A stretch of DNA of 64,000 nucleotides from Clostridia bacterium (GTDB lineage: Bacteria > Bacillota > Clostridia > CAKSNL01 > HGM11501), in the NCBI GenBank assembly GCA_045545475.1, contig JAZQAZ010000015.1, forward strand, positions 32,001 to 96,000, given 5' to 3'. The translations under genes were made by a program, and so were the position numbers. Shown here one piece after another: positions 11,903-43,296 of this stretch. The number at the start of each line of letters is the position of its first letter. The stretch's first letter is position 1. Under the pieces are notes generated by a model that saw only the letters and a program-made list of their open reading frames with translations, had not been told where the DNA came from and made no database searches.

Positions 11903-14320
11903 TTATTTAGTAATTGTAATTTCCTGAGTCTCTCCGTTCCACTCTACGTTATATCCGAGCTGTTCAGAAATAAATCTTACAGGAATGAAGGTTCGGGAAT
12001 CCTTGATTTTAGGCGGTACGTTAAGAGTATATCTTACTTCCTTACCCTTTGAATCAATGATATAAACGCTTCTGGACATAATCTGCATTTCGATTATTGT
12101 TCCGTCCTTTTCGATTAATATCTGCTGAATATTTCCGTTCCATTCAATTGTTGCGCCCATTTCCTCTAAGAGTCCTCTTAAAGGAATAAGGGTGTAGCCT
12201 GCACCTGCAATGTAAGGAGCAACGTCAATCGTTCTTACAGAATCAACTCCGCCTTTATGGGACTTAATCTCGTTTGAACCGATTTTAAGGATGTAGCTTT
12301 CCTTTTCATCCTCTGCCCTCTGCTCTGCTGAATTGGTGCTTTCATAGAAGGTGATTTCAGCACAGCTTGCTCTTCCGTCATTACCCTGATTGATGTAGAA
12401 ACGGATGAATCCTGCATGTATGGGTTCATCAAACCTTATAACCTGCTCGCCCTTTTTCTTTTCAAAGGTTAAAAGCTCCTTTGCGATTTTGTAATTTTCA
12501 CCATCAACGGAGTAAAGCACGTCAAAATCAAGCCACAAGCCGTGATAGTCATCTGACTGACGAGGAAGCACGTTAATCTGTGCCACATAGTAATTGTCGT
12601 TTAAGTCAATATCTAAAACGTAGGGCCCTTCAACCTTGGTTGTCTGCCATACAGATTGGGGTGAGCCGTCAACCACCGCAGAAACCTTACCTGTATCGGG
12701 CCACTGCAAAGGAGCATCGCACTTTGCTGTCATTCCCTTTTTAGGAATTGCGATAAGGCCGCCTTCTTCGTATGCCGCTGCATAATCCTTCGGCTCAACA
12801 ATTGCCATATTGGGATCATACGGTTTAAGATTAAGCTCGGCACAAGTTCCGTAACCGCCGGCACCGTCCAGAAATTCAAGCTTCAAGGCGTCAAGCTTTA
12901 CGTTGAAGGACCACTCGGAATTCTTAAGTCCCATATCGTTTGCCCATTCACCGCCGCCGATCAAATATTCCTCTCCGCCCAAAATTGCATAGGCGTTATA
13001 TTTGAATATTCTTCCCGACTTTATGTTGTCCTGTCTGGGGGTATAGGTAAAGCCGCCGATTGTAACTGTGCCTGGAAGGGTTATTGTTACATAGAAGGGT
13101 GGGTTGTCCTTTGAAAGAATGGTGGAGCCGGATGCTTTATAGTTTGTGTGCCAGTAGGTGGAGCTGTCACCGTCAATCATTTTCTCGGCTGTGTTGTTTC
13201 CGATGTGGCTTGATGCCTTTATTTTCCATTCGGACTTGTCGGGGATGAAGCCGGGTTCATATTCCTCACGGGGGCCCATAAGTTCAGCCTTTTCCTCGGC
13301 AGACTTGATTTCGTCAATATCTTTCTTCGTCAAAATGTCAATTTCCCCGCAGGTGCCTACTCTTCCCGTTGTCGATCTGAACACAAGGCGGATTCCCGCG
13401 ATTTCCGTTTCCTTCCAAGAAACAACTTCAACAGTTCTGTCACCAATAAAGGTGCCCGATGCAAGCTTTTCACCCTGGGCTGTACCGGAAAGTGCGTATA
13501 CATCATAGTCCTTTATATAACCTGTATCGCTGGTCTGTCTTGGAGTATAACGTATACCTGCAGCCTTAACTCTGGCAGGTAGGTTTATGTCAATTGTAAA
13601 GGGGGCAGGATCTGTTGTGTCAACCTTTCCATCCTTTACAGTGTACTTTGAGTGCCAGTAAGTCACAGGATCGCCGTCTATCATTTTTTCTGCTTTTTCT
13701 GTGTTAAGCTCGCTTGATGCCTTGATTTTCCAGGTGGATTTTTCCGGAACAGTTTCCACCAAAGGAAGCTTTGCCGCATCGTTGGCAGATGCCATTTCCG
13801 CGGGGCTTATAAGGTCAATTTCCGCACAGGTTCCGACACCGCCCGATGCCACCGTACTTGTGAAAATTATTCTTATGCCGGAAAGATTAACGGCATCCCA
13901 GCTGAAAGTTTCGATTGTATCGTCTCCAACAAATGTGCCCTTTGCAAGAAGCTTTCCCTGAGTTTCGCCCGAAAGCTCATAAAATTCAAAGCCCTTTACA
14001 TAGCCCGTGTTGCTGTTCTGTCTCGGAGTATAACGGATACCTGCAACAGTTGCCTCGGAAGGAAGGGTAATGTCTATTATATAGGGAGGCTGAACCTTGT
14101 TTACAGCCTTTCCGTCTTCCGTGTCGTACTTGGAGTGCCAGATAGTATCTGTTTTTCCGTCAATCATCAACTCTGCCTTGCCCCAACCCATTTCCGTGTT
14201 GGCGGTAATTTTCCAGGTGGACTTTTCGGGGATTGGCAAATCTTCTGCACTTATATAAAGTACACTTACAGTTGAAAGCACTAAGATAAGAGAAAGCATT
14301 AAGCTTAAAATCTTTTTCAT
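11903..14320 (-). CDS. Module 1 partner: secreted protein with 4 F5/8C (CBM32/discoidin-like) domains + C-terminal stalk domain
   Basis: Start ATG 14320 (MKKILSL..., GGAGG RBS). Repeats of MIDG..TYWHS...YTPRQ...TCAEI. C-terminal IDVAPYI..TLIPLRGLLE...RTFIPVRFISEQLGYNVEW. Confidence 0.85.
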   Translation of the reverse strand: MKKILSLMLSLILVLSTVSVLYISAEDLPIPEKSTWKITANTEMGWGKAELMIDGKTDTIWHSKYDTEDGKAVNKVQPPYIIDITLPSEATVAGIRYTPRQNSNTGYVKGFEFYELSGETQGKLLAKGTFVGDDTIETFSWDAVNLSGIRIIFTSTVASGGVGTCAEIDLISPAEMASANDAAKLPLVETVPEKSTWKIKASSELNTEKAEKMIDGDPVTYWHSKYTVKDGKVDTTDPAPFTIDINLPARVKAAGIRYTPRQTSDTGYIKDYDVYALSGTAQGEKLASGTFIGDRTVEVVSWKETEIAGIRLVFRSTTGRVGTCGEIDILTKKDIDEIKSAEEKAELMGPREEYEPGFIPDKSEWKIKASSHIGNNTAEKMIDGDSSTYWHTNYKASGSTILSKDNPPFYVTITLPGTVTIGGFTYTPRQDNIKSGRIFKYNAYAILGGEEYLIGGGEWANDMGLKNSEWSFNVKLDALKLEFLDGAGGYGTCAELNLKPYDPNMAIVEPKDYAAAYEEGGLIAIPKKGMTAKCDAPLQWPDTGKVSAVVDGSPQSVWQTTKVEGPYVLDIDLNDNYYVAQINVLPRQSDDYHGLWLDFDVLYSVDGENYKIAKELLTFEKKKGEQVIRFDEPIHAGFIRFYINQGNDGRASCAEITFYESTNSAEQRAEDEKESYILKIGSNEIKSHKGGVDSVRTIDVAPYIAGAGYTLIPLRGLLEEMGATIEWNGNIQQILIEKDGTIIEMQIMSRSVYIIDSKGKEVRYTLNVPPKIKDSRTFIPVRFISEQLGYNVEWNGETQEITITK

Positions 14321-14334
14321 TTTTGTCCCTCCCC

Positions 14335-16980
14335 TTATAAAATTTCCGCAGCCTTTAATACTGCATCCACATTTATTTCTCCGCCGCTTATTGCAAATGT
14401 ATCTCCATTTACATAGGCTTTCCAACCGAACACCTCGGTTAAATAGCTTAAAGGAATGTATCTTAAGCCATCTACTACCTTAACGGGAGCAGAAAGTGCC
14501 ACTACCGCACCGTTCTTTCTTGCTTCCATACTTCCAACGATGGTGTATGACCAGATATGGTCAACAATTTCTATGCCCTTACGGTTATAATTTGAAACAT
14601 ACTGAGCATTATCCTCTGCATAATATTCCGTCTTTGTTTCGCCGTAGCCCATTATATCTTCCACAGCAAGTTCCGGAACGTAAAGTGTTCCGTTTTCCAT
14701 AAAGGCGGTGATTCTTGTATCGGCGTCATAAATATTCATTTTACCGCCCGATACCACCATTTTATTACTTCCAGCCTTAAATACCGCTGTATCATTAAGT
14801 GCCACCCTTGTATCATCATCAAGAGAAACCTGGGCAATTTCGGTGTAAAGATAGTTAAAGCGTCCATTGGGTGCAACGGATCCAAACTCGTAAAATCTTA
14901 ATACATCGCCGTTTTCTTCTGCATTGTCGGCAACCTTGAATTCAAGGTCAATTGCACCGGTTTCGCCTATCATCTCTCTTGTAAGAGCGAATATAACGCT
15001 CTTACCATTTATCTTTACTTCTGCATTTCCAACTGCGTTCCATGTGCCGTTATAGGAAGAAACATTACCGTCACCTGCAATAAGGTAGTCATAACCTTCC
15101 CATCCTGTCGCATAGTTACGGTCGGTATTTAAGTAAATGTGAAGCTTTGATGTATCCGTAACCTTCGCTTCTGCATCTACCTTTATGTAGAGCTTTGCGT
15201 CATCACGTGCCATTTTTGCACCGGTGATTACGTTTACATAGCTTGTTACATAGTGGAAGTTTTCGCCCGTCTTATAGTTGATGAGTCCGTATTCATCACG
15301 TTCTTCGCCGAAGTTATCGTTGATAAATTCCGGGCCAACGTTATCCCACTGGGAAAGGTCACCTGCGATATCTATGGTCTTATCCTCTGTTGCAAGAGGT
15401 GCAGGACGAACACCCTTATATTTTCTTACAAAGTCGCAAAGTAAATTATAATAGTCATCTCTTAAAGGACCTCTGGATGGCTCAAAGTCACGGCTTCCCT
15501 CATCGTCAAAGGAGTCAACAAAGGAGTTATCGTGGCCTGAATACTGAGCCTGTCTTCCCGCAGTCCACTCGTTCCAGCCGTCAACATAGATAAATGCAGG
15601 ATCTTCCCTTAGTGCCTGAATAGCCTCTTCCCTGAAGAAGTAACCCATATTCGTTGCGCCTTCTCTGTAGTCCTCGCCGAAGCCTTCTGTATAGCTTCTT
15701 CCCTTGGTGTAAGGATCGGAGAATACGCAGGTATGACTCCAGCCGTCAACATAGGATTCGTTTACTCCGGTACCCACAACCATAAATTCCGTTCTTCCGT
15801 CTTCTTCGGTGTTCCACTTGGTTAAGGGAGAAGCCTGGAGCCAGTGCCAATAGCGGTCGCCTCCCACATATTCAACGGGCTCACGGGAACCTGACATACG
15901 GAATGTGTAAAATTCAAAAATTTCTCTTATATATGCTGTTTCGTCAAGCTTTTTTGTATCAAGATTGGTAGACCACTTGGAGTTGTTACCAAACATAAGG
16001 GGCTTACCGTCCCACTCATACCAAAGATCTTTATATCTTTCGTTTTCAAAGAAATATGTATGGACATTTACAAGCTGAGTACGTCGCTGGGAATGGTCTA
16101 CATACCAGGAGTTAAGAGCATTAATCTTGGGAACACGGATTCCGTCCGCCTTTGCATCGGCATATGCCTCGCAGAGAAGATTAAGTGTCTGTCCGCCCGA
16201 AGCAGTACCGTTTGACCAGTCAAAGAAGATTACGTCAACGCCTGCATTTGCAAGCATAATGGCGTGGCGGCGGATTACCCAGTAGTCGGACATCATATAG
16301 TAGCCGAACAAGGGCTCGTTCCAGTAGTAGGCTGTTGCACCCTCCGGCCATGCCTCGTGATAGAAATCATCATATGCATCGGGGTGTGCAGCTATAATTT
16401 CCGAGGGAATTCTTGCTGTTGTTATGGGCTTTTCCTCCGATCCCCTGAGCCAGTACATCATACCGACCTGGCGCATTCCCTCTTTAACGGGTCCAACCTC
16501 TTCAAAGTCAGCCACCTTAACGCCTGCGGCACTTGTCGCAACCCAGGTGTCCGAATAGTTATCGATGAGGCAATCATCTGACGGAATGGTGTAGGGGCTT
16601 ACATACTTTTCCTTGGAAAATGTAACGGATTTAATTGCCGCTCTTCCGATATGCGCCGTTACATAAACGTCATGTACTCCTGAAATTTCTCTGATATTTG
16701 AGGAGTATTCCGTTATGCGATTGTCGCAGATTCTTAAAAATGTAATAATATGTCCTCCGTCTGCCTTATCTGCCGTAATTCTCAAGGTTGCTTCGCTGTA
16801 TGAATCAAGTGTAACCTTTACGGACTTTATGTCAGTAAGGTCAACCTTTTCAAAAACAACGCTTTCCCCCTCCTTGATGCTTTTTGAAACATCAAGAACT
16901 GTTTTTGTCCCTTCTGCAAATGACGGTATCATAGATAAAACCATCAGAAGCACAAGAAACAAAGCTGCAAGTTTTTTCAT
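14335..16980 (-). CDS. Module 1 enzyme: signal peptide + CBM6-like + GH99/GH71-like barrel + beta-sandwich + degenerate stalk domain
   Basis: SGVHDVYV (CBM6 end); YYWNEPLFGYY..YWVIRRHAIMLANAGVD; GKPL; GWNEW...EGSRDFEP; YLNTDRNYATGWEGYD; APVKVVDGLRYIPL. Confidence 0.7.
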   Translation of the reverse strand: MKKLAALFLVLLMVLSMIPSFAEGTKTVLDVSKSIKEGESVVFEKVDLTDIKSVKVTLDSYSEATLRITADKADGGHIITFLRICDNRITEYSSNIREISGVHDVYVTAHIGRAAIKSVTFSKEKYVSPYTIPSDDCLIDNYSDTWVATSAAGVKVADFEEVGPVKEGMRQVGMMYWLRGSEEKPITTARIPSEIIAAHPDAYDDFYHEAWPEGATAYYWNEPLFGYYMMSDYWVIRRHAIMLANAGVDVIFFDWSNGTASGGQTLNLLCEAYADAKADGIRVPKINALNSWYVDHSQRRTQLVNVHTYFFENERYKDLWYEWDGKPLMFGNNSKWSTNLDTKKLDETAYIREIFEFYTFRMSGSREPVEYVGGDRYWHWLQASPLTKWNTEEDGRTEFMVVGTGVNESYVDGWSHTCVFSDPYTKGRSYTEGFGEDYREGATNMGYFFREEAIQALREDPAFIYVDGWNEWTAGRQAQYSGHDNSFVDSFDDEGSRDFEPSRGPLRDDYYNLLCDFVRKYKGVRPAPLATEDKTIDIAGDLSQWDNVGPEFINDNFGEERDEYGLINYKTGENFHYVTSYVNVITGAKMARDDAKLYIKVDAEAKVTDTSKLHIYLNTDRNYATGWEGYDYLIAGDGNVSSYNGTWNAVGNAEVKINGKSVIFALTREMIGETGAIDLEFKVADNAEENGDVLRFYEFGSVAPNGRFNYLYTEIAQVSLDDDTRVALNDTAVFKAGSNKMVVSGGKMNIYDADTRITAFMENGTLYVPELAVEDIMGYGETKTEYYAEDNAQYVSNYNRKGIEIVDHIWSYTIVGSMEARKNGAVVALSAPVKVVDGLRYIPLSYLTEVFGWKAYVNGDTFAISGGEINVDAVLKAAEIL

Positions 16981-17032
16981 ATTTTTTCTTCCTTTCTTTT
17001 ATGCGGATAAAATCCCCATAATTCTTAGTTTT

Positions 17033-17094
17033 ATTTTACCACAAATCACTTTTTATTTCCTTAATTTTTTTTACCGATTATGTGCCTTATTTCT
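17033..17094 (-). promoter_or_regulatory. Activator-dependent promoter: extended -10 (TGGTAAAAT) + 37-bp motif at the -35 region
   Basis: 17058-17094 matches 46071-46107 at 32/37 positions, and both lie 19 bp from a -10 hexamer. Confidence 0.65.
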
Positions 17095-17169
17095 TCAATT
17101 TTTTGTCATTTATTAAAATTCGTCTCATACAGTATACAATACCTGAAACTATAATTCAAGCGATTAAAG

Positions 17170-17202
17170 AAAACAGGGCGTAGAAAATCTACGTCCTGTT
17201 TT
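17170..17202 (-). terminator. Intrinsic terminator after module 2
   Basis: AAAACAGGGCGTAG / CTACGTCCTGTTTT stem. Confidence 0.75.
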
Positions 17203-17214
17203 GGTTATTATGCC

Positions 17215-20352: not shown

Positions 20353-20367
20353 ATTCTTTCCCTCCTA

Positions 20368-23146: not shown

Positions 23147-23947
23147 TTATTTCCCGATTTTTTCTTTTCTTTTCATAAATTCTTCTCTCAGGCTTTCAAC
23201 TACCGTGTCTTCTTTCAAAGCCAGAATGTCCTTTGCAAGTCTCTTTGCATATAATTCGATAAGCTTATCCCCTTTTTCCTTTGTAGCTTTGGAGGGGCTT
23301 CCCGTAACGTGTTCGGGATAGCTTGCATACCAGGAGAAAGGTGTTTTAACCCTTCCTAAATGCTTGACACGTTTAAGCGCCTCAATAGGCTCCGGAGCTT
23401 TGCAGTTTTCAAGCTTTACGCTGCCCGGTGCCGCAGACATTGCAAGGCTTGTTTCCCAGGCATCTGCGTGACCTCCGTCAGGCTTAACATATTTATATAC
23501 CTCATCAAGTTCACTTGAGCTTAATCCCACATCAAAGCTTACGGCATAGAGGGTATAAGGAACATCTCTGTCCATATTTGAGAAAAGGAAATAATTAAGC
23601 ATCGGCATATTTCCGCCGTGGCCGTTTACAAACATAATTTTTGTAAAGCCGTTTCGCCCTATTTCATCGCATAGATTGCGAAGAATGGTAAGTGTTAAAT
23701 CCGAATCAAAAACTATTGCTCCGGGAGAATGTGTTGCCTCGTGTCCCTGCCCGAACCAATAGCCGGGGAAAACCACACAAGGTTCAAGCTTTGCGGCTTC
23801 GACCGCTATTTTGTGAGCCGCCAGAACGTCTGTCCCAAGGGGGCCGTGGTCTCCGTGACGTTCCAGTATTCCTATGGGTATCAGGCAAATTTTTTCTTTT
23901 TTCGCCATTTCCTCAAGTTCTTTAGATGTTAAAAGTTCCCATTGCAT
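23147..23947 (-). CDS. Creatininase / MftE-family metal amidohydrolase (copy 2)
   Basis: PIGILERHGDHGPLGTD, VNGHGGN, GGHADAWETS, ATKEKG. Confidence 0.9.
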   Translation of the reverse strand: MQWELLTSKELEEMAKKEKICLIPIGILERHGDHGPLGTDVLAAHKIAVEAAKLEPCVVFPGYWFGQGHEATHSPGAIVFDSDLTLTILRNLCDEIGRNGFTKIMFVNGHGGNMPMLNYFLFSNMDRDVPYTLYAVSFDVGLSSSELDEVYKYVKPDGGHADAWETSLAMSAAPGSVKLENCKAPEPIEALKRVKHLGRVKTPFSWYASYPEHVTGSPSKATKEKGDKLIELYAKRLAKDILALKEDTVVESLREEFMKRKEKIGK

Positions 23948-23963
23948 ACTGCCGCCTCCTTAA

Positions 23964-24767
23964 TTATTTCCCGATTTTTTCCGACCTTTCCATAAATTCT
24001 TCTTTAAGGCTTTCCACAACAGTATCTTCCTTAACAGCCTTTATATCTCTTGCAAGAACCTTTGCATAAAGCTCTATAAGCTTGTCGCCCGCTTCTTTAT
24101 TCGCCATGGAAGGATTACCCGTAACGTGTTCGGGGAAGCTTGCATACCATGAAAAGGGTGTAAAAACTCTTCCCAAATGATTTACCCTTCCCATAGCCTT
24201 TATGGGTTCAGGAAATCTTTGATATTCCATCTTCACGCTTTCGGGCGCAACAGACATAACAAGGCTTGTCTCCCATTTATCTGCGTGTCCGCCCGAATCT
24301 GCCGCCATGTAGCTATCCGCCTCTTCCCTTTCAGAAGGTGTAAGACCTGAATCGTACATTACGGAATAAAGTGTGTAAGGAACATTTTTATCCATTGTTG
24401 AAAAAAGGAAATAGGAAAGCAACGAACCGTTTCCGCCGTGGCCGTTTACAAACATAATTTTTGTAAAACCGTTTCTTGCAATTTCGTCGCAGAGATTTTT
24501 AAGAAGGGTTAATGTGAAATCCGATTCAAAGCTTACCGCACCAACTGAAAACTTTGCTTCGTGAACCTGACCGAACCAGTAAACGGGGAAAACCGCACAA
24601 GGCTCGATTTTTGCAGCTTCAACCGCAATTTTATGTGCAACAAGTCCGTCTGTTCCGAGGGGCAGATGCTCTCCGTGACGCTCAAGTACACCGATCGGAA
24701 CAATACAAAGCTTTTCTTCCTTTGCCATTTTTTCAAGATCTACAGGTGTTGATAATTCCCACTGCAT
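23964..24767 (-). CDS. Creatininase / MftE-family metal amidohydrolase (copy 1)
   Basis: PIGVLERHGEHLPLGTD, VNGHGGN, GGHADKWETS; tandem paralog of 23147..23947. Confidence 0.9.
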   Translation of the reverse strand: MQWELSTPVDLEKMAKEEKLCIVPIGVLERHGEHLPLGTDGLVAHKIAVEAAKIEPCAVFPVYWFGQVHEAKFSVGAVSFESDFTLTLLKNLCDEIARNGFTKIMFVNGHGGNGSLLSYFLFSTMDKNVPYTLYSVMYDSGLTPSEREEADSYMAADSGGHADKWETSLVMSVAPESVKMEYQRFPEPIKAMGRVNHLGRVFTPFSWYASFPEHVTGNPSMANKEAGDKLIELYAKVLARDIKAVKEDTVVESLKEEFMERSEKIGK

Positions 24768-24779
24768 AGTGCCGCCTCC

Positions 24780-25646: not shown

Positions 25647-25754
25647 TTCACTTCCTGTAAATATATTGTTACTGTAAATTATAATATTTTAATGGTTAAT
25701 TGTCAAATAATTTAAGCCTTATTACAATCAGAAAATGTACCGGTTTCCAATTAC

Positions 25755-27191: not shown

Positions 27192-27205
27192 TTAACCTCT
27201 TCCCT

Positions 27206-31492: not shown

Positions 31493-31524
31493 AAAAAGTT
31501 GCCACGCATCTTCGTGGCAACTTT
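31493..31524 (-). terminator. Intrinsic terminator after module 3
   Basis: AAAGTTGCCACG / CGTGGCAACTTT perfect stem. Confidence 0.8.
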
Positions 31525-34048: not shown

Positions 34049-36820
34049 TTAATCAAGTAATGCCGCAGCAGAAAGTGCTGCATTTTTATCTATTTCATGG
34101 CTCGATACAGCATAAATTCCGTTACCGAGACTTTCCGCCTTCCATCCGAATACATCGGCAAAATATGTATATGGCAGGTAAATTATTCCGTCAATATTTT
34201 TACATACTGCAGAAAGATAATTTGCCTTTCCGTTTACTCTTACTTCAGCTGAACCTATAACATTGCATGACCAGATATAATCTTCAATCTGTGCACGAAT
34301 TGATTTGTTACCTCTGTAGTCTGCCAGAGGTTCATCTGAAAGTCCCAAGTTAAAGTTCTTTACAAAAACCATATTAAGGTCGGAATAATACTCAACCTTA
34401 GTTTCACCATATCCCAAGATTTCCTCTGCCGCAAAGAGGGGTACATATAAAACGCCGTTTTCTTCAAAAGAATTTACCCTTATATCTGACTCGTTTACAT
34501 ACATTTCTCCGCCGTTTACATTCATTTTCGCACTTCCCGCCCTAAATACCGAAGTATCTGAAAGTGCCTTTCTGGTTGTTTCATCAAGGGAAACTTCTTC
34601 AATTTCTGTATAGAGATAATTAAAACGTCCGAGAGGTGCAACACTGCCGAATTCGTATAATCTTAAAATATCTCCGTTTTCTTCTGCTCCGTCTGCCCAC
34701 TTAAATTCAAAATCGGAAACGGTTTCTCCAAGGAGCCAGATGGGTATAGAAACCATAAATGTGTTTTCCTTCATGCTAGTGGGGCAATCAGCAACCTTTG
34801 CCCATGCACCGTTATAGCCTGCGGCAGAAAGCTCGCCAAATCCCGATACGTTAAATGAGAAGTCATAGCCTTCCCAGCCTGTCGCTCTGTTTCTGTCAAC
34901 ATCTATATAAAGATGCATGAAAGAGTCGCCTTTTTTGATAGGCTCTTCTGTTTCTACAAGGAAGTAATAGTTTGCATCGTCACGTGCAACCTTTGCTCCC
35001 GTAATGTAGTTTGAAAGCTTTGTGACATAACGATAGTTTTCTCCCGTTTCGGGATTTACGTAGCCGTAATCGTCACGCTCATAAGCTCCTCCTACATTCA
35101 GGTAGTGCGGAGTAACATCTGCCCACTGTTCGCTACCCATATTTATGTCAATGGTCTTTTTCGCTGATGCGACAGGTGCTTTTCTTACGCCCTTATACTT
35201 TCTTATAAAGTCTGTCATCATCATATAATAGTCATCACGAAGACTTCCTCGTGAAGGCTCCATATCACGGCTCTTTTCTTCGCTGTAAGTATCAACAAAT
35301 GCGTTCTCAAATCCCGAATAACCGTTATGACGGCCGTTCTGCCATTCATTCCATCCGTCAATTAATACAATCGCCGGATCAACCGAGAGTGCACGGGAAA
35401 TCTGTTCGCGGAAGAAATAGCCGATGTTTTTAGCTTCAGGTCTAAAGTCATCACCAAACGCTTCGGAATACCCTCTGCCCTTAGTGTAGGGATCAGAAAA
35501 TACGCCGTTATCGTCATATTCATATTCGTAGGAGTGGTTGATTGCAGTACCTACCGGCACGCACTCAACTCTGCCGTCAGCTGTTACGCCCCACTTGGTC
35601 TGAGGATAGTTCTGAAGCCAGTTCCAGGCCCCTGTGGGTTCACTGTCGCCTGCACCTCTGTAGCCGTTACAGCGGAAGGTGAACTTATCTATGATATCTT
35701 CCATAATATCGTTTCTTGAAAAGTCTTCTCCGGGCTTGAAGCTGCTTTCCGGCGAAGGTGTCATAAGCAGGTACTTACCATCAAGCTGATACCATATATC
35801 GGCATAAGCTTCTTCTCTTATTATGCTTAAGTAAACCGCCTGACAGAATCTTTCTCCTCCGCCCCAGGGACCGAGAGCCGAAAGTTCCGGAATGTCAACG
35901 CCGTCCTTCTTGGCATCCAAAAATGCTTCAAGAAGAACTTCCATTGAATTCCAGAAAACAACCTGTCCGTTGGACCAGTCAAAAAGAAGAAAGTCAACTC
36001 CTGCTGCCGAAAGCATTTCTGCATGACGGCGGTAAACCCAATAATCTCTTGAATGGTAGTAGCCAAAAAGGGGCTCGCCCCAGTAATATGCCCCTGATAT
36101 ACCTTTGGATTCGGGCCAGGCGGGATGGTCATAGTCATCCTTTGCATCGGGGTACTTTTCAATAAGCTTTTCCTGAAGAGTTACAACGCTTTTGGGCACT
36201 CCGTTAAGCCCGAAATTAACCCAGTAGAAAATACCCACATCGTGAAGTCCTTCCTTCACGGGACCTGCTTCTTCATAGCCTGCCAGTTTTCTGCCCAAAG
36301 CATCGGTTCCAACCCAGGTATCGGAAAAATCGTCAATGATGGCTGAATCAGGAACAACAGGAACACTCGGTGCTTCTTCCTTGGAGAGAATAACGTCCTT
36401 TATGTAAATTTCCTGGTCGGAAATATAGGTAGTCTGAATATAAAGCTTTACCTTTCCGCTTACGGGATACAAAAGGTTTCCGGAATAAACCTTGTCCTTT
36501 GAATCCATATCGTGAACACTTATATAGCCCACACAGTCTCCCTCTAAGGGATCGCCGATTCTTATTCTGAATGTTTCTCCGTTTTCGCTTGAAACAATTT
36601 TGCAGTCGGCAACTAATGAGATAGACTTAACTCCTGTCATATCAACGTCATCCCATCCTATATAGGCACTGTTTTTAAGCCTTACACCGTTTTCAGTTTT
36701 TTCAGCGTTTGACTCAAAGTCTGCCTTGGTAACATCCAAATTCATATCGCCATCTTCAGCGAAACAGAATGTGGGTGCCATGATTACAAGGCACAAAAGA
36801 ATACACAAAGCTTTTTTCAT
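34049..36820 (-). CDS. Module 3 enzyme: CBM6-like + GH99/GH71-like + stalk-type domain, secreted
   Basis: YYWGEPLFGYY..YWVYRRHAEMLSAAGVD; GWNEW...SEEKSRDMEP; YIDVDRNRATGWEGYD. Confidence 0.7.
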   Translation of the reverse strand: MKKALCILLCLVIMAPTFCFAEDGDMNLDVTKADFESNAEKTENGVRLKNSAYIGWDDVDMTGVKSISLVADCKIVSSENGETFRIRIGDPLEGDCVGYISVHDMDSKDKVYSGNLLYPVSGKVKLYIQTTYISDQEIYIKDVILSKEEAPSVPVVPDSAIIDDFSDTWVGTDALGRKLAGYEEAGPVKEGLHDVGIFYWVNFGLNGVPKSVVTLQEKLIEKYPDAKDDYDHPAWPESKGISGAYYWGEPLFGYYHSRDYWVYRRHAEMLSAAGVDFLLFDWSNGQVVFWNSMEVLLEAFLDAKKDGVDIPELSALGPWGGGERFCQAVYLSIIREEAYADIWYQLDGKYLLMTPSPESSFKPGEDFSRNDIMEDIIDKFTFRCNGYRGAGDSEPTGAWNWLQNYPQTKWGVTADGRVECVPVGTAINHSYEYEYDDNGVFSDPYTKGRGYSEAFGDDFRPEAKNIGYFFREQISRALSVDPAIVLIDGWNEWQNGRHNGYSGFENAFVDTYSEEKSRDMEPSRGSLRDDYYMMMTDFIRKYKGVRKAPVASAKKTIDINMGSEQWADVTPHYLNVGGAYERDDYGYVNPETGENYRYVTKLSNYITGAKVARDDANYYFLVETEEPIKKGDSFMHLYIDVDRNRATGWEGYDFSFNVSGFGELSAAGYNGAWAKVADCPTSMKENTFMVSIPIWLLGETVSDFEFKWADGAEENGDILRLYEFGSVAPLGRFNYLYTEIEEVSLDETTRKALSDTSVFRAGSAKMNVNGGEMYVNESDIRVNSFEENGVLYVPLFAAEEILGYGETKVEYYSDLNMVFVKNFNLGLSDEPLADYRGNKSIRAQIEDYIWSCNVIGSAEVRVNGKANYLSAVCKNIDGIIYLPYTYFADVFGWKAESLGNGIYAVSSHEIDKNAALSAAALLD

Positions 36821-36933: not shown

Positions 36934-37038
36934 CTCGTGTTGTAATTTATATATTTTTCTGTATTTTATTATAATGCATTTTCTCACCCTTATCAATAGC
37001 TAAAATATCTCAAAACATGCACAAAATAATTTTAAACC

Positions 37039-37944
37039 TTGAAAAAAACGCAATTAGCATATATAATTATTCAGAAGGGAGTAATTTTTATGATTATGAA
37101 CGTAGCATACTCGAGCACAGATAAAGTTTCTGACATAGAAGATTTGTCACGTCCTCTCAAAATAAATTGCTGTGGACATTTCATTGTAGATTCCCGCCCC
37201 GGTATAACAACCGAGCATCCCGAAGGCAGACGTGACTATCAGCTTATATATATAGCATCCGGCAAAGGACATTTTTATTTTGACGGAATCGAGCACATTG
37301 TAACACAAGGGCATATGATTTTATTCAGACCTCACGAGCCCATGCAGTATTATTATTATCCGGAAGATAAAACCGACGTATATTGGGTGCATTTTACCGG
37401 AAAGGACGTCCCCTTGCTACTCAAACATTATGAGCTTCCCGAAAACGGAAACATATTCTACACCGGGGTTTCTCCCGATTATCAGTGGATATACCGCCAG
37501 CTGATACGTGAGCTTCAGCTTAAGCGAACAAATTATGAGGAAATGCTTTCTCTTTTACTAAATCATATATTCTTGGTTATAAACCGCTATATCAAAGAGA
37601 GTAACACCCCCGGAAGCGATATGGTAAACGAAATTGAGAGAGCAGTTTCCTATTTTACGGAAAACTACCAAAAAGATATAAGCATTGAAGCTTATGCAAC
37701 AGAACGAAGTATAAGCAAAAACTGGTTCATCCACAGTTTCAGGAGAATAATGAAAGTAACCCCCATGCAATACATTTTGTCACTTCGCATCTCTGCCGCA
37801 AAAGCTTACCTTGAAAGCACTGAAAAAAATATAACCGAAATAGCCTATGCCGTAGGCTATGATAACCCATTATACTTTTCAAGACTCTTTAAAAAATTCA
37901 CAGACCAATCTCCTTCAGAATACAGAAAACAAAGGCAGGATTAA
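37039..37944 (+). CDS. AraC-family regulator divergent from module 3
   Basis: GRRDYQLIYI; EIAYAVGYDNPLYFSRLFKK..SPSEYR; true start probably ATG 37090. Confidence 0.92.
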   Translation: MKKTQLAYIIIQKGVIFMIMNVAYSSTDKVSDIEDLSRPLKINCCGHFIVDSRPGITTEHPEGRRDYQLIYIASGKGHFYFDGIEHIVTQGHMILFRPHEPMQYYYYPEDKTDVYWVHFTGKDVPLLLKHYELPENGNIFYTGVSPDYQWIYRQLIRELQLKRTNYEEMLSLLLNHIFLVINRYIKESNTPGSDMVNEIERAVSYFTENYQKDISIEAYATERSISKNWFIHSFRRIMKVTPMQYILSLRISAAKAYLESTEKNITEIAYAVGYDNPLYFSRLFKKFTDQSPSEYRKQRQD

Positions 37945-37961
37945 CCTGCCTTTGTTTTTTT
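37926..37961. terminator. Bidirectional terminator between convergent genes
   Basis: AAAACAAAGGCAGG / CCTGCCTTTGTTTT. Confidence 0.8.
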
Positions 37962-40560
37962 ACTGTTCGTTTGTAATTGTAATAGTCTTAGTTTCGCCAT
38001 CCCATAAAACAGTATACCCAAGATGTTCAGAGCAGAATCTTAAAGGAATGAATGTTCTTCCTTCGACAATTCTTGGTTCCTGATTAAGGGTATATCTCAC
38101 TCTTCCGTAGCGACCGCCGGTTACATAAACGATGTTGTTCCATATCTGAAATTCTATCTTCATCAATGAATTTTCAACGATTATGGACTGATTTTTGTCA
38201 ACCCATTCTATTGTGGCTCCCATTTCCTCCAAAAGTCCTCTTAAAGGAATAAGGGTGTAGCCTTCATCAATGAACGGAGAAACATCCAACGTTACGTTCT
38301 TTGTTTCCCCGCCCTTCGTAACTTCAATTACCGGAGAGCCTATCTTTAGCACATATTTTTCAAAATTGCTTTCTTGGCTGTCTTTATAATCTCCGGCAGA
38401 CTGATAGAAGGTAACTTCTGCACAGGATGCTTTGTTTGTATAGCCTTCCACTATTTCAAACTCCACATAGCGTGCCTTTACTGGAGAATCAAACTTAACA
38501 TTTTTAACCTTCATGCTTCGCTCAAAGCTGTGGTTTTCAAGGACACATTCATAATTTTCTCCGTCTAAGCTTACCCACACGTTAAATAAATCCCAGTTTC
38601 CGTGAAAATCCTCACTTTGTCTCGGTGCCACATCAAAGGAGTCAATACTCCATTCTCCGCCAAGGTCGATTGTTAAAATAAAAGGTTCCTTTTCTTCCGA
38701 AGCAGTCTGCCAGAAGCCTGTCATAGCCTCATCCAAAACACCTGACGGCTCGTGATTAAGCCAGAAGCCCTGAGGTGAGGATGCACTCATATTGGCCTTC
38801 GGTATTTCGTACACGGCAATTTCATCATAGATTTCGGTGTATTCTGCAGGTGTTACGGTTTTCTTTGCAGGATCAGACTTATAAAAGTCGATTTCCGCAC
38901 AGCTTCCGTAACCTCCTACGCCCTCTTTAATTTCATATCTTATACGCTTTGCCTTTATGTTTGCGGCAAACATCTTCATTTTTTTACCGTTGTCCTCGTC
39001 AGCTGTGCCTTCTTCAATTAAAACCCAGTCATCCGAATCATCGATACATCCGTAAATAGCATACTTTGTGGGGTTTCCTGCCTCTCCGTCCGGTCTTGTT
39101 GTAAACTCAACGCCTGAAAGCTCCCTTACTTCGGGGAAGGTTATATCTATATAGTGAGGCGGAAGCTCTCTTGATACAATTATGGAACCTTCGTTTTTAT
39201 AGTCTGAGTGCCAGTAATTTACATAGTCACCGTCGATGGGGCGACGCATATAGGCATTATCCTTCACTTTGGAGCTTGAAAGTTTTACTTCCCAGGCACC
39301 CTTACCAGTAAGATAGGTACCGTCGTCTCCCTGCACATCATCTGTGTTTGTTGCAGAAGCTCCGGATTCCTCTTTTTTTGTATCTGAAGACGTATTTTCG
39401 TTTTCCCGTGTGGAGCTTTTGTAGTCCTTTAATGCTACGGTCTTCTTTGATGCATCACTCACCATAAACTCGATTTCCGTACAGGATGCATAACCGTCTA
39501 CGCTGTCGGTTATCTTGAAGCGTACCTTTTTTGCACTTACGTTGGAATTAAGGAGTACTTCAAACTGTGCTGCCCCCTTTACTGCCGTTCCCGACTCTAA
39601 AAATACCCAGGTTTCGGAATCGTCGGCACATCCGTATATAGAATATTTAAGGGGATTACCCGCTGTACCTGTTACACGGTTTATGAATACAACTCCGGAG
39701 AAGGTTCTCGCCTCGGGGAAGGTTATATCCACAAAGTGCGGAGGATTAACCTTTCCTGTAATCTGGCTTCCTTCGTTGGTGTAGTCTGTGTGCCAGTGCT
39801 GTTCCATATCGGTATCTATAGGGCGGCGGACATAGCCATCACTTTTTACCTTGGAGCTTGAAACGGTAACATCCCAGCTTTCCTTGCCTGTTAAATACTT
39901 ACCGTCATCGCTCTGATGCACTCCCGGATTTCCTTTGGAAGTGAGGCTTACCGCAGCATCTCCTGTTGAAGGTTTCTCGGTATTTTCCTGTGTATTTTCT
40001 GTTGCCGTCGTTTCGGTGTCTTTTACATCGCCCTTCAGCATTATAATTTCTGCGGCGGTGCAATAGCCGCTATTTGCCGCAGTAACGATGAACTTAATTG
40101 ACTTGTAACTTCCCTTTTCAATAGCTCTGTCTGCAGTTGCCCGGCTTTTTGCAAGGTCATATGTTACTTCTCTTAAAAGCTTATATTCGCTTCCGTCAGC
40201 ACTTCCGTAAATTTCAACCTTTTCCCATATGCCTGATGTGGAATCCACATTGTTTTTCTGACGAGGAACATATCTTACGCCTGAAATTTCAAGAGCTTCG
40301 GGAAATTCTATTATGATTTCGTAGGGAGGATTATCGTGTCCTACTACCTTTCCGTCCTCAACATAATATTTTGAATGCCAGTAGGTATTAATATCACCGT
40401 CTATCGCCTTTGTGATGTCGTTAAATTCGCCCATTATGCTCTCTGTCGTAATTGTCCAGCCCGATGTGTCGGTATAGGCATCCTCCGCAAAGGAAGGAAT
40501 AACGAAAAGCATTGATGTTATAAGACTTAATGCAAGTAAAAGTGTAAATATCTTTTTCAT
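37960..40560 (-). CDS. Module 4 partner: secreted protein with 4 F5/8C (CBM32-like) domains + C-terminal stalk domain
   Basis: Signal peptide; AIDGDINTYWHS..VPRQ and related repeats; stalk domain LDVSPFIDEGYTLIPLRG...RTFIPLRFCSEHLGY. Confidence 0.85.
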   Translation of the reverse strand: MKKIFTLLLALSLITSMLFVIPSFAEDAYTDTSGWTITTESIMGEFNDITKAIDGDINTYWHSKYYVEDGKVVGHDNPPYEIIIEFPEALEISGVRYVPRQKNNVDSTSGIWEKVEIYGSADGSEYKLLREVTYDLAKSRATADRAIEKGSYKSIKFIVTAANSGYCTAAEIIMLKGDVKDTETTATENTQENTEKPSTGDAAVSLTSKGNPGVHQSDDGKYLTGKESWDVTVSSSKVKSDGYVRRPIDTDMEQHWHTDYTNEGSQITGKVNPPHFVDITFPEARTFSGVVFINRVTGTAGNPLKYSIYGCADDSETWVFLESGTAVKGAAQFEVLLNSNVSAKKVRFKITDSVDGYASCTEIEFMVSDASKKTVALKDYKSSTRENENTSSDTKKEESGASATNTDDVQGDDGTYLTGKGAWEVKLSSSKVKDNAYMRRPIDGDYVNYWHSDYKNEGSIIVSRELPPHYIDITFPEVRELSGVEFTTRPDGEAGNPTKYAIYGCIDDSDDWVLIEEGTADEDNGKKMKMFAANIKAKRIRYEIKEGVGGYGSCAEIDFYKSDPAKKTVTPAEYTEIYDEIAVYEIPKANMSASSPQGFWLNHEPSGVLDEAMTGFWQTASEEKEPFILTIDLGGEWSIDSFDVAPRQSEDFHGNWDLFNVWVSLDGENYECVLENHSFERSMKVKNVKFDSPVKARYVEFEIVEGYTNKASCAEVTFYQSAGDYKDSQESNFEKYVLKIGSPVIEVTKGGETKNVTLDVSPFIDEGYTLIPLRGLLEEMGATIEWVDKNQSIIVENSLMKIEFQIWNNIVYVTGGRYGRVRYTLNQEPRIVEGRTFIPLRFCSEHLGYTVLWDGETKTITITNEQ

Positions 40561-40575
40561 TTTTCTCCCTCCTTA

Positions 40576-43296
40576 TTAAAATTCCGATGCTGCAGTTTTA
40601 ACTGCATTTACATCAATTTCGTGACTTGATACTGAGAATATATCACCTTCATTATACATCTTCCAGCCAAATACGTCACACACATAGGTTAAAGGCACAT
40701 AGCAAAGACCGTCTTTAACAACTACCGGAGCCTGTAATGTCGCAGCTTCGCCGTTGATTCTTACTTCATTTGTGCCAATATATGTATATGACCAGATATT
40801 ATCTGTAATTTCAAAGTTTTTAAGATTGAAATTCTTAAGGAAGAACATATTCTTGCTCTGACGGTATTCATATTTTGTTTCGCCGTCACCCAGGATATAT
40901 TCAAAGGCACTTGCAGGCACATAAAGAGTTCCGTTTTCCATAAAGGTTGAAACTCTTGTATCAGCGTCGTAAACATAGTTTTTTCCGCCGTTTACAAACA
41001 TTTTATTTTCACCCGCTTTAAATACCGATGTATCGGAAAGTGCGTTTCTTGTTTCAGCATCAAGGCTCTTTTGCGGAACTTCTGTGTAAAGATAGTTAAA
41101 GCGTCCCATGGGAGCAACGCTTCCGAATTCGTAAAATCTTAAAATATCTCCGTTTTCAAAAGAATAGTCTGCCCATTTAAATTCAAGGTCTGCCTTATCG
41201 GTTTCACCGAGTATGCCCCTTGGAATCGAAACCGTATATACATTTCCTGTTATGTTTAAAGTTGCATCGGCCTCTTTAATCCATACCCCTTCCTTGTAGC
41301 TTGCAATTTCGCCCTTGCCTGTTACATTAACGGAGATGTCATATCCTTCCCAGCCTGTTGCCCAGTTTCTGTCAACATCAATATAAAGGTGCATAAAGGA
41401 GTCATTGTCCTTAATATCATCTTCGCACTCTGCCATGAAGTAGAAATAATTTTTGTCTCTGGCAACCTTTGCACTTCTTATAACATTTGAAAGCTTTGAT
41501 ATAAACACATATTTCTCTCCGGTATCGCCGTTGGTAAGACCTGTTGCATTTCTTTCATAACCGCCTTCTATGTTGATAAATCGGGGTTCTACATTATCCC
41601 ACTGCGATACGTCACCGCTTAAGTTAATGGTTGTTTCACCGCTTGCTAAAGGTGCAGGACGAACGCCCTTATATTTTCTAATATAGTCAACCAATATGTT
41701 GTAATAGCCGTCCTTAAGCACTCCTGCCGACGGTTCAAAGTCTCGGCTGTTTTCATCGTCAAAGGTATCAACAAAGGAGTTTTTGAAGCCTGAATATTCT
41801 GAATTTCTTACCGCTGTCCATTCGTTCCAACCGTCAATCATAACCATAGCGGGATCAAGTGCCAAAACTCTTGACATCTGCTCTCTGAAGAAATATCCCA
41901 TATGCATAGCTTCCTCCCTGTAGTCTTCGCCAAAGCCTTCTGTGTAGCTTCTTCCCTTTGTGTAGGGGTCTGAAAACACACCTGTTTTTTCAAACATAAA
42001 TACGTATGATTGGTTTATTCCCGTACCTGCAGATACGCTTTCGACTCTGCCGTCAGCCATTTTGCCGTAAGCTGTCTGGGGATACTGCATAAGCCAGTTC
42101 CATGCCTTTTCATCGGAGTATTCTCCGCCCTGACGACTTCCATTTTGCCTGAAGGTAAAGTATTCAAATATTTCCTTAAGAAGTGCATCGTTTTCCGAAT
42201 CTTCTCCTGTTACAAAACGAGAGAGCGTATCAGGATTGGTCGAGCCAAACATAACGGGCTTTCCTTCCCACTTATACCAGAGATCGTTATACTTTTCAGG
42301 CTTGAAGTAGTTAAGGTAAAGGCACTTAATCTGTGCAAGCCTGTGTTCGTAGTCTCCGCTCCATGAGGAAAGACAGCTTACTCCCGGAACATTAACGCCC
42401 GCCTTTTTTGCATCGTAAAATGCTGAAAAGAGGATATTTGTCTGAGTTATAAAAGCACTTCCTCCATTGGAAAAGTCAAAGAAGATTGCATCCACTCCCG
42501 CATTTGCCAGCATTTCCGCATGACGGCGATATACCCAGTATTCATTACTTGTGTAAAAACCAAAGAGAGGTTTTGACCAGAAATAGTTTCCGTTGATATC
42601 CCATACGTCACTGTAATAATTTTCCTTTTCTGAAGGATGAGCAGCAATTATCTCGGAGGGGATTCTTGCATTATGAATGTCTGTCACGGTCCAGTTCCAG
42701 TAAAGCATACCCACCTCGTGGAGGCCTTCCTTTACTTCGCCGACTTCTTCATAGTCGGCAAGTTTTCTTCCCATATGGTCAGTTCCTGCCCATGTATCTG
42801 AGAAGTTATCGATGATTGCAGTATCGGGAACAGGCACATAGGTATTTTCAACAATTTCTCCGGAAAGAACAATTTCTTTTACCGAGATGGCGTTGTTTCC
42901 GCCATAGGTTGCCACAACATAAAGGTCGTGAACTCCTGTTACTTCTTTTATATTTGTTGAAAAAACACCGTCAATGGCGTTGCCTTCGTTGAATACAACA
43001 TAGCCAAGACATTCACCCTTTTGGGGATCGTCAATTCTTATGCCGAAAGCCTCACCGTTTGCACCGCCTGTAATTATGGAATCCCCCTTGATTGATATAC
43101 TCTTAATACCGGTTAAATCCACATTTGAAAAGGCGATATACCTTCCCTTCGCAAAGCCTTTAACTGCATTTCCGGAAACCGACACTCCGCTGCTTTTTGA
43201 AAAGGACACCGCAATTAAAGTTTTGTCCGCTGCAAAGGAAGTCACAAGGGACAGTGCCAGAATTAAGGCAAGTGTCAGGCAAGCTAACTTTTTCAT
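40576..43296 (-). CDS. Module 4 enzyme: CBM6-like + GH99/GH71-like + stalk-type domain, secreted
   Basis: TGVHDLYV; YFWSKPLFGFY..YWVYRRHAEMLANAGVD; GWNEW...DDENSRDFEP. Confidence 0.7.
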   Translation of the reverse strand: MKKLACLTLALILALSLVTSFAADKTLIAVSFSKSSGVSVSGNAVKGFAKGRYIAFSNVDLTGIKSISIKGDSIITGGANGEAFGIRIDDPQKGECLGYVVFNEGNAIDGVFSTNIKEVTGVHDLYVVATYGGNNAISVKEIVLSGEIVENTYVPVPDTAIIDNFSDTWAGTDHMGRKLADYEEVGEVKEGLHEVGMLYWNWTVTDIHNARIPSEIIAAHPSEKENYYSDVWDINGNYFWSKPLFGFYTSNEYWVYRRHAEMLANAGVDAIFFDFSNGGSAFITQTNILFSAFYDAKKAGVNVPGVSCLSSWSGDYEHRLAQIKCLYLNYFKPEKYNDLWYKWEGKPVMFGSTNPDTLSRFVTGEDSENDALLKEIFEYFTFRQNGSRQGGEYSDEKAWNWLMQYPQTAYGKMADGRVESVSAGTGINQSYVFMFEKTGVFSDPYTKGRSYTEGFGEDYREEAMHMGYFFREQMSRVLALDPAMVMIDGWNEWTAVRNSEYSGFKNSFVDTFDDENSRDFEPSAGVLKDGYYNILVDYIRKYKGVRPAPLASGETTINLSGDVSQWDNVEPRFINIEGGYERNATGLTNGDTGEKYVFISKLSNVIRSAKVARDKNYFYFMAECEDDIKDNDSFMHLYIDVDRNWATGWEGYDISVNVTGKGEIASYKEGVWIKEADATLNITGNVYTVSIPRGILGETDKADLEFKWADYSFENGDILRFYEFGSVAPMGRFNYLYTEVPQKSLDAETRNALSDTSVFKAGENKMFVNGGKNYVYDADTRVSTFMENGTLYVPASAFEYILGDGETKYEYRQSKNMFFLKNFNLKNFEITDNIWSYTYIGTNEVRINGEAATLQAPVVVKDGLCYVPLTYVCDVFGWKMYNEGDIFSVSSHEIDVNAVKTAASEF

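Follow-up and report, generated by a model that had tools for sequence, protein, structure and literature searches.

The glycoside hydrolase (GH) families GH99 and GH71 share a D/E-x-x-E catalytic dyad, and a conserved beta-sandwich distinguishes GH71 (PMC12394665). The domain PF07833 (Cu_amine_oxidN1), hereafter the stalk, is present in proteins of the Desulfotomaculum reducens surfaceome (PMC4137172), accompanies cohesin in the cell-surface proteins OlpC and ScaG (PMC3413522) and forms a homodimer in the case of Paenibacillus PaSOD (PMC10432803). Both themes meet in a 64,000-nucleotide (nt) stretch of a Clostridia bacterium genome (the window, i.e., the whole stretch of DNA analysed). Here, pairs of adjacent genes, termed modules, encode a protein with a predicted GH99/GH71-like barrel and a stalk-type C-terminus (gene 1) and a protein composed of F5/8C (discoidin) domains followed by a stalk (gene 2). 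The window contains four such modules and the genome 42.

The preferred interpretation, held with moderate confidence, is that each module specifies an unclassified secreted glycan-cleaving enzyme and a non-catalytic lectin array, both displayed via the stalk, and that this arrangement was amplified 42-fold. A two-gene operon would then have multiplied to 42 diverged copies within a genus-level lineage of uncultured gut Clostridia. Gene 1 would encode a secreted, probably endo-acting enzyme of an unclassified GH99/GH71-fold family with a conserved Glu in a W-N-E-W motif, and gene 2 a secreted non-catalytic array of two to five discoidin domains resembling carbohydrate-binding module (CBM) family CBM32. 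The PF07833 stalk on both proteins would represent a shared module for surface retention or assembly, used as relatives use dockerin, and would keep lectin array and enzyme together on the cell surface. The array would capture one particular glycan and the enzyme would cut it, with each module having its own specificity and many being switched by a neighbouring AraC-type regulator.

Copy number, layout and co-duplication of the modules

The genome of the window (label G000; 2.74 Mb, 50 contigs, 95% complete) harbours 42 intact copies of gene 1 with open frames of 887-976 amino acids (aa) and 40-56% identity to the copy of module D. Each of the 42 is followed on the same strand by a partner with two to five F5/8C domains; a hidden Markov model (HMM) built here for the gene-2-type stalk recognizes 41 of these partners, the 42nd being truncated by a contig end. 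Together, the modules account for 222,951 coding bases (8.1% of the genome). The initial annotation of the window had assumed a module repeated four times and diversified for four substrates, numbers far too low given the genome-wide count. Gene 1 and gene 2 are separated by 12-36 base pairs (bp) in 40 modules, one of the other two having its partner cut by the contig end and one carrying an insertion, and 41 of the 42 gaps contain a GGAGG-type site. Signal-peptide-like N-termini are recognized by a simple rule in 82 of the 84 module proteins, and in 31 of 41 cases the downstream 70-mer folds below the 5th percentile of random 70-mers. At G000 C37:20505-21392 (L102:14-838), a 274-aa open reading frame (ORF) lies between gene 1 and gene 2 and begins right after a GGAGG.

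Congruence of the two genes, a check proposed with the initial annotation, was analysed from distance matrices only, with the contig-cut module on C16 excluded (41 modules). Distances between gene 1 cores and gene 2 tails are correlated (Mantel r=0.45; reached by 0 of 2000 shuffles), and gene 1 and gene 2 have the same nearest paralog in 26 of the 41 modules. The two genes were duplicated as a unit.

Sequence divergence is unevenly distributed over the modules. Mean identity among paralogs is lowest in the carbohydrate-binding parts (28% for the N-terminal F5/8C domains of gene 2, 30% for its last F5/8C domain and 31% for the CBM of gene 1), takes an intermediate value in barrel plus sandwich (44%) and peaks in the gene 2 stalk (54%), suggesting that ligand specificity shifts on a constant catalytic and anchoring frame. 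Partial Mantel analysis of gene 1 CBM versus N-terminal F5/8C domains gave a null result (r=0.03; reached by 668 of 2000 shuffles), and that of barrel versus N-terminal F5/8C domains a weak signal (r=0.19; 35 of 2000) which is not relied on here.

The features of the window are as follows, with coordinates referring to positions in the 64,000-nt stretch and modules named A-D in order of rising coordinate:

14335..16980, minus strand: gene 1 of module A, 881 aa
11903..14320, minus strand: gene 2 of module A, 805 aa; four F5/8C domains and PF07833 stalk
11860..11899, minus strand: hairpin and T-run 3' of gene 2, module A; read directly from the sequence, not in the consensus terminator scan
20368..23130, minus strand: gene 1 of module B, 920 aa
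17215..20352, minus strand: gene 2 of module B, 1045 aa; five F5/8C domains and PF07833 stalk
17170..17202, no strand assigned: two-way terminator-like hairpin 3' of gene 2, module B; 15 pairs
34049..36820, minus strand: gene 1 of module C, 923 aa
31528..34035, minus strand: gene 2 of module C, 835 aa; four F5/8C domains and PF07833 stalk
31495..31524, minus strand: terminator-like hairpin 3' of gene 2, module C; 12 pairs
40576..43296, minus strand: gene 1 of module D, 906 aa; signal peptide, CBM6-like domain, barrel, beta-sandwich and divergent PF07833 stalk
37960..40560, minus strand: gene 2 of module D, 866 aa; signal peptide, four F5/8C domains and PF07833 stalk
37926..37958, minus strand: terminator-like hairpin 3' of gene 2, module D; 14 pairs, then T-rich tail
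37039..37944, plus strand: AraC-family regulator of module C; divergent from module C (219 bp), convergent with module D
43437..44207, plus strand: AraC-family regulator of module D; divergent, 141 bp upstream of module D
23147..27964, minus strand: same-strand genes upstream of module B, encoding a metallo-beta-lactamase fold, GH20, a GNAT-like and two creatininase-family proteins; 16 bp from gene 1 of module B
9488..11779, minus strand: stalk-bearing secreted enzyme outside the modules; PF07833 (133.5 bits) near the N-terminus and a pectate-lyase-like beta-helix

All eight module ORFs are located on the minus strand at the positions given by the initial annotation, which had described them as four paralogous bicistrons; the true ATG is internal to a longer ORF in modules A (gene 2) and C. 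The reported gaps of 13-15 bp agree with the 14, 15, 13 and 15 bp measured for modules A, B, C and D, and each gap contains little besides a GGAGG Shine-Dalgarno site. A hairpin with T-run follows all four gene 2 copies, in line with the terminators predicted there, and the divergent AraC genes reported for two modules are those upstream of C and D. Module B needs a correction: with only 16 bp between its gene 1 and the same-strand genes upstream, it probably does not stand alone but closes a longer operon. Within the window, gene 1 paralogs share 46-51% and gene 2 paralogs 36-38% identity.

Gene 2 had been described as signal peptide, four to five F5/8C domains and a stalk, with no visible catalytic domain, and the domain map confirms this composition. 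F5_F8_type_C (PF00754) matches with 164-212 bits in four, five, four and four stretches in modules A, B, C and D. In the module D protein these domains span approximately residues 29-184, 223-375, 417-569 and 586-728 (182 bits in total), followed by the stalk at 749-866 (95.8 bits). As the largest unassigned stretch in any of the window copies comprises 42 aa, they contain no hidden catalytic domain. Elsewhere in the genome, gene 2 departs from a pure F5/8C array in five of its 42 copies (C8:32009-35923, C37:21393-25415, C38:43808-46987, C19:45899-48214 and C18:61938-65519; L099-L103). Four atypical copies possess N-terminal regions of 296-879 aa without Pfam family, and the atypical copy on C18 carries Flg_new-type repeats after a weak stalk.

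Outside this genome, the gene 1 core was found in all 11 congeneric genomes (with scored matches ranging from 3 to at least 32 and first-look candidates numbering as many as 53), in 13/13 genomes of the family and in one of 27 other families of the class sampled alongside; a wider draw of the class contained it in 22 of 300 genomes. Further copy-rich lineages are family f15 (6/6 genomes with 12-35 candidates) and one genome of f60 (G127) with 60 first-look candidates. Copy D has likely orthologues in four congeners (84-92% identity; other matches there at most 58%, paralogs in its own genome at most 56%), and the module repertoire is therefore old and maintained.

The neighbourhood of gene 1 elsewhere was surveyed in fetched loci of other genomes that contain a stalk-bearing gene 1 and at least 2 kb of downstream sequence (n=19). 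In 16 of these loci a gene for F5/8C domains and a stalk follows, the exceptions being L010 (none), L030 (380 aa with two F5/8C domains and no stalk) and L041 (xylose-isomerase-like gene). Such a downstream gene accompanies none of about 85 stalk-less core ORFs; thus, the gene pair is a trait of the stalk-bearing subfamily. The dedicated pair of an enzyme-like and a lectin-like protein postulated by the initial annotation is therefore borne out by 42/42 modules in the genome, by the loci elsewhere and by the shared nearest paralogs.

The stalk domain and a possible association of the two proteins

Matches of PF07833 (cut-off 24.2 bits) are strong in all four window copies of gene 2 (95.8-111.6 bits) and range from 24.2 to 36.1 bits in gene 1, with copy C exactly at the cut-off and copy D at 36.1 bits. 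The structural model of the gene 1 C-terminus of module D (167 residues; predicted local distance difference test, pLDDT, 96.1) has Escherichia coli amine oxidase's N-terminal domain as its only consistent fold match (86 columns, root mean square deviation, rmsd, 2.4 A, 26% identity, E 1e-3), and this match covers only about half of the 167 residues. The gene 1 C-terminus (~165 residues) is therefore a stalk-type domain with an extension, in accordance with its earlier designation as stalk-type. Compared with PDB sequences, it retrieved E. coli amine oxidase alone (E 0.07), and the gene 2 stalk of module D had no match at E<=0.01.

The stalk is abundant in this genome, with 108 PF07833 matches and about 110 stalk-bearing ORFs. 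Two types can be told apart by HMM: the gene-2-type profile matches 68 ORFs, namely 41 gene 2 copies and, with the stalk at either end, 27 others, and no gene 1, and the gene-1-type profile 46 ORFs (42 gene 1 copies, one gene 2 and three others). Within the window, the pectate-lyase-like protein at 9488-11779 bears a stalk, which is therefore not private to the modules. In Oscillospiraceae homologues of gene 1, a dockerin occupies the C-terminal position of the stalk. Anchoring domains of the genome comprise 56 SLH, two cohesin and four dockerin matches, and no sortase was matched in it. One cohesin/dockerin locus (G000 C20:54493-59814; L104) encodes a 1329-aa protein with YDG, Big_2, MBG and Flg_new repeats, two strong stalks and an in-frame cohesin match. 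It adjoins short ORFs with cohesin and dockerins in an OlpC/ScaG-like arrangement.

According to the model of the initial annotation, the two different stalk domains would join every enzyme to the lectin protein of its own module in a specific heterodimer. The existence of two distinct stalk classes is compatible with this model, as is the gap between the genes which, being little more than a Shine-Dalgarno site, suggests coupled translation. Enzyme and F5/8C domains are moreover combined in one chain in the fused forms P0004, P0007 and P0008. A further point in favour of the model is that the PF07833 domain of PaSOD homodimerises (PMC10432803). The gene 1 C-terminus (167 aa, 56-row alignment) and gene 2 stalk (122 aa, 54 rows) of module D were co-folded as one cognate pair with three controls. 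An interface score (ipSAE, from the predicted aligned errors) of 0.54 was obtained (runs 0.54, 0.58 and 0.53; best control 0.02), with partner pLDDT of at least 72 and 100% contact agreement among runs, a result graded as weak support. Of 157 solved complexes, 116 attain the mark applied, as do 2 of 215 mismatches; only 18 of the 157 and both passing mismatches do so at 0.60 or below. The procedure separates neither cognate from non-cognate pairs nor hetero- from homodimers. The two chains are members of the same domain family, for which a homodimer is known (PaSOD; PMC10432803), so the pass may reflect a generic dimer mode.

Several observations speak against module-specific docking. Stalk 1 and stalk 2 do not co-vary once barrel and last F5/8C domain are controlled for (partial Mantel r=0.09; reached by 334 of 2000 shuffles), which gives no sign that cognate stalks co-evolve. 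Among the 41 paralogs, no other part of gene 2 is as conserved as its stalk, whereas module-specific docking surfaces would be expected to diverge, and the same stalk type is present on 27 unrelated proteins. For the docking proposed earlier there is a weak co-fold pass, and the expected signature of cognate pairing is missing. The heterodimer model is consequently viewed as rather unlikely, and on balance a shared role of the stalk in display or assembly is preferred, for which its presence on the 27 other ORFs, its conservation and the lack of stalk co-variation argue. A generic stalk-stalk association is possible.

Barrel fold and candidate active site of gene 1

In the gene 1 protein of module D, a CBM6-like domain (~29-144) is followed by a predicted (beta/alpha)8 barrel (~150-550), a beta-sandwich (~580-740) and the stalk (~740-906). 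The CBM6-like domain, assigned to gene 1 in general by the initial annotation, is recognized above the CBM_6 cut-off (PF03422, 28.9 bits) in copy D (33.7 bits); copy B remains below (26.8 bits), and A and C have no match. In sequence comparisons, phmmer with the gene 1 protein of module D returned 0 PDB matches at E<=1, and NCBIfam 0 families for all four window copies. The GH99 model of Pfam (PF16317, cut-off 33 bits) reaches 21 bits in copy C, has no match in A, B and D, and attains a sub-threshold 19-20 bits in three of 28 distant family members, with none in the others. GH71 of Pfam has no match in the four window copies (E<=0.01) or the 28 relatives (E<=0.001).

A structural model of the core of copy D (residues 150-740), built with 45 aligned relatives, has a pLDDT of 92.5 and a predicted template modelling (TM) score of 0.94, with the barrel at ~1-400 and the sandwich at ~430-590 (model numbering). 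Foldseek comparison with PDB placed GH99 first (E 1e-7, TM 0.50 on the target, 12% identity) and GH71 next. VIA-align likewise ranked GH99 MANEA highest (Z 19.5; rmsd 4.2, 276 aligned), followed by PDB entry 5ngw, a 'glycoside hydrolase-like protein' (Z 17.2; a literature search for the entry returned unrelated papers only), GH71 (Z 15.0-15.4) and clan GH-A enzymes (Z of about 12). The sandwich resembles CBM9 (Z 9.9). A profile of the core family matched BtGH99 best among PDB sequences, at a marginal E of 0.012 and with G-W-N-E-W aligned to F-N-E-W-H-E. The model thus displays a GH99-type (beta/alpha)8 barrel and, as in GH71, a beta-sandwich tightly packed against it.

The invariant E492 (numbering of copy D), located in the W-N-E-W motif, is the counterpart of the first Glu of the dyad. 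The 42 paralogs have A, T, V, S or N at position +3 relative to it, and the 45 family members A, V, T, S, C or N (mostly Ala); an acidic residue never occurs there. Because the D/E-x-x-E catalytic dyad is not kept, the gene 1 core is a separate branch of the GH99/GH71 fold group and a member of neither family. The earlier label 'GH99/71-like barrel' is accordingly appropriate at the level of fold and not as a statement of family membership.

Seven polar residues, D274, N277, N491, E492, R518, D519 and D529, are invariant in all 42 paralogs and also in the 45-sequence family alignment, and in the model they are situated at the C-terminal ends of barrel strands. In barrels that share only 44% identity between paralogs, such invariance may be read as the mark of a functioning active site, where a different acid would take over from the lost dyad residue. 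Alternatively, gene 1 may encode no hydrolase at all, acting as a glycan-binding pseudo-enzyme or catalysing another chemistry (lyase, transglycosylase, esterase). The consistently non-acidic second dyad position is in agreement with this explanation, and no characterised member was found in the family, PDB and sequence searches. However, the invariance of the polar set is the pattern of an active catalytic site, and D519 or E521 could stand in for the missing acid. The explanation is therefore considered improbable.

Relatives of the core are widespread: a scan of 1.84 billion representatives retrieved 2071 at E<=1e-3 and 687 at E<=1e-30, named 'hypothetical' or 'stalk domain-containing' by their sources. 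A protein atlas returned nothing but 'hypothetical protein' clusters and one automatically named 'GH71'. Genomes carrying the core include metagenome-assembled genomes (MAGs) of gut Clostridia and records of Bacteroidota (Dyadobacter fermentans, Pedobacter, Alistipes, Prevotellaceae, Duncaniella, Maribellus), Planctomycetota, Sedimentisphaerales and Terriglobales. The core occurs alone or fused to CBM6, CBM35, F5/8C (CBM32), dockerin or stalk. In five annotated Bacteroidota loci the stand-alone core is found beside SusC/D (3/5) and rhamnosidases of GH78 or GH106 (2/5), with CE15 (carbohydrate esterase family 15), GH43 and DUF5722 as other neighbours and often in tandem copies. Fusion to CBMs and dockerin together with these neighbours points to a family of carbohydrate-active enzymes. 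Among the papers listed in literature searches on GH99, GH71 and new GH families, none describes the core family, judged by titles and abstracts.

Stalk-less cores also occur in tandem in other Clostridia and in Bacteroidota, with four in a row in L017, three in L012, L035 and L066, and two with dockerins in L056. In the fused forms P0004, P0007, P0008 and G002:C30:60523-62268 (1081-1221 aa), F5/8C domains are N-terminal to a gene-1-type enzyme, whose part begins at residue 341 in P0008.

Genomic context and comparison with known systems

No gene family constantly travels with the modules within 8 kb. The sole widely recurring neighbour family is AraC (30 ORFs near 24 modules), the remaining neighbours being heterogeneous. 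Any AraC gene within 1.5 kb is present at 17 of the 42 modules. AraC-type regulators are typical of sugar-induced operons, and with 86 among 2241 non-nested ORFs their share in this genome is unusually high; seven are located in the window. Recurrent neighbours within 8 kb are Gfo/Idh/MocA proteins, glycyl-radical enzymes and their activases, GH78, GH106-like, GH20 and GH29 proteins, and creatininase-family and metallo-beta-lactamase-fold proteins. The window further encodes GH28, GH43, two CE15 esterases and DUF4838. These enzyme families suggest that the targets are complex glycans with a high content of rhamnose, fucose, uronic acids and hexosamines.

Some neighbours deserve separate mention. 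The creatininase-family pair directly upstream of module B (23147-24767, minus strand) has a relative at G000 C38:50830-51747 (L084), and three of the four ORFs of this family in the genome lie near modules. At 46108-50572 of the window (minus strand), the gene of a glycyl-radical enzyme (PFL-like plus Gly_radical) is grouped with those of an M20 peptidase and a radical-SAM activase, with further occurrences at C31:72634-75153 and C3:30255-31127. The genome contains eight glycyl-radical-enzyme and seven activase paralogs, and in both cases four lie no more than 8 kb from a module. A 590-aa ORF (44243-46015, minus strand), flanked by the AraC gene of module D and the radical-SAM activase, belongs to no Pfam (E<=1e-5) or NCBIfam (E<=0.01) family. 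A 673-aa protein at G000 C30:142322-144343 (L079) is a xylose-isomerase-like TIM barrel fused to Gfo/Idh/MocA, from a cluster of 36 ORFs of which seven are near modules. An 873-aa protein at G000 C18:54841-57462 (L082) combines two ABC ATPase domains with a domain resembling the S-component of energy-coupling factor (ECF) transporters and belongs to a cluster of 21 ORFs.

DNA nearly identical to the window was present in 20 of the 23 listed animal-gut runs (8 studies). In two metatranscriptome runs, contigs of 124-384 nt, some with one to four differences, cover portions of both genes in modules C and D.

Several points weigh against the preferred interpretation of a glycan-cleaving enzyme and a lectin array jointly displayed via the stalk. 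In the four window copies, the gene 1 core (~580-590 residues) belongs to no family of Pfam or NCBIfam and lacks a relative among PDB sequences. Given the missing second dyad acid, its chemistry may differ or be absent. With the 56 SLH matches, a classical wall anchor is already present, and in the one biochemical study consulted, on PaSOD, the stalk forms a homodimer. To our knowledge, surface retention by PF07833 has never been directly shown, and we know of no scaffold protein for stalk domains. A divergent AraC gene within 1.5 kb upstream accompanies 13 of the 42 modules only, and no dedicated transporter accompanies the modules among the flanking ORFs of the window. The genome contains as few as five SBP_bac_1 and 14 BPD_transp_1 matches, a poor fit with 42 separate foraging systems. 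Finally, no listed metatranscriptome piece bridges the junction of gene 1 and gene 2, and DNA carry-over is possible.

Alternatively, the modules may serve a purpose other than feeding, namely to recognise and cut the glycans of other cells (capsule or extracellular polysaccharides, fungal wall, host mucus) in adhesion, competition or biofilm remodelling, with the 42 copies as a target repertoire. Discoidin arrays are also known from adhesins. The small number of sugar importers for 42 modules would fit, as would the rapid divergence of the binding domains, expected for target recognition. GH99 and GH71, whose folds come closest, have alpha-mannans and alpha-1,3-glucans from the surfaces of fungi and microbes as their substrates (PMC12394665). 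However, the modules have catabolic neighbours (GH78, GH106-like, GH20, GH29, Gfo/Idh/MocA, glycyl-radical enzymes) and AraC-type regulators nearby, and Bacteroidota homologues of gene 1 reside in SusC/D nutrient loci; a non-feeding role is thus given a low probability. An autolysin function, suggested by the frequent occurrence of PF07833 on wall hydrolases, was dropped, since 42 diverged copies with lectin arrays and sugar-catabolic neighbours do not fit.

If the enzyme-lectin interpretation holds, a function would be assigned to a widespread family (687 representatives at E<1e-30) without Pfam, NCBIfam or solved-structure relative, the altered catalytic centre of which would be of interest to enzymologists. 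Some uncultured gut Clostridia would specialise by multiplying one compact operon instead of collecting many GH families, and the module would provide a simple genomic marker of glycan repertoire. With some 40 natural pairs as material, the long-unclear role of PF07833 in Firmicutes could be tested. Experimental follow-up is warranted by the size of the system, by an enzyme family that is unclassified and has a rebuilt catalytic centre, and by how extensively the stalk is used.

The initial annotation did not recognise the modules as a described system, and literature searches turned up no account of them; among the matches listed for stalk-domain and discoidin-domain proteins, nothing relevant was found. 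Partial likenesses to known systems can nevertheless be drawn. With the endo-alpha-1,2-mannosidases/mannanases of GH99 (BxGH99, 4ad5; BtGH99, 4acy; human MANEA, 6zdc), gene 1 shares the barrel fold and the first Glu of the dyad. It differs from them in its low identity (12%), the replaced second Glu of E-x-x-E and the additional C-terminal beta-sandwich, CBM6-like and stalk domains. The alpha-1,3-glucanases of GH71 (AnGH71C, 9fnf/9fnh; Agn1p, 8yfh) likewise possess a barrel packed on a C-terminal beta-sandwich, at 10-14% identity, whereas their D-x-x-E dyad and a Pfam GH71 match are absent from gene 1. Firmicutes proteins with PF07833 (Clostridium thermocellum OlpC, A. cellulolyticus ScaG, Paenibacillus PaSOD, D. 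reducens) have the same domain in extracytoplasmic proteins of many functions; the present genome differs in having about 110 stalk ORFs in 2.74 Mb and a divergent longer subtype nearly private to gene 1.

Cellulosomal enzymes resemble the modules in that many secreted carbohydrate-active proteins share one small terminal module, whereas none of the eight window proteins carries a dockerin and the genome has no more than the two cohesin and four dockerin matches. One may tentatively speculate about a third large-scale strategy of glycan foraging beside cellulosomes and polysaccharide utilization loci (PULs), comprising PF07833-mediated display of about 110 proteins, 42 co-evolving enzyme-lectin cassettes with one glycan specificity each, and a new GH family with a rebuilt GH99/GH71 catalytic centre; at present, this is a doubtful rather than a probable proposition. 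The initial annotation compared the pair to SusG plus SusE/F, a loose likeness at most. Sus systems likewise place a surface enzyme beside non-catalytic surface glycan binders, whereas the modules operate without an outer membrane and include neither SusC/D nor another transporter; SusC/SusD had no match among the 36 flanking ORFs of the window, and importers of the CUT1 type are few. With the PULs of Bacteroidota, the modules have in common that a gene pair is amplified, each copy residing in its own enzymatic context and often having its own regulator. The amplified pair consists of transporter and binder in the PULs and of enzyme and lectin in the modules.

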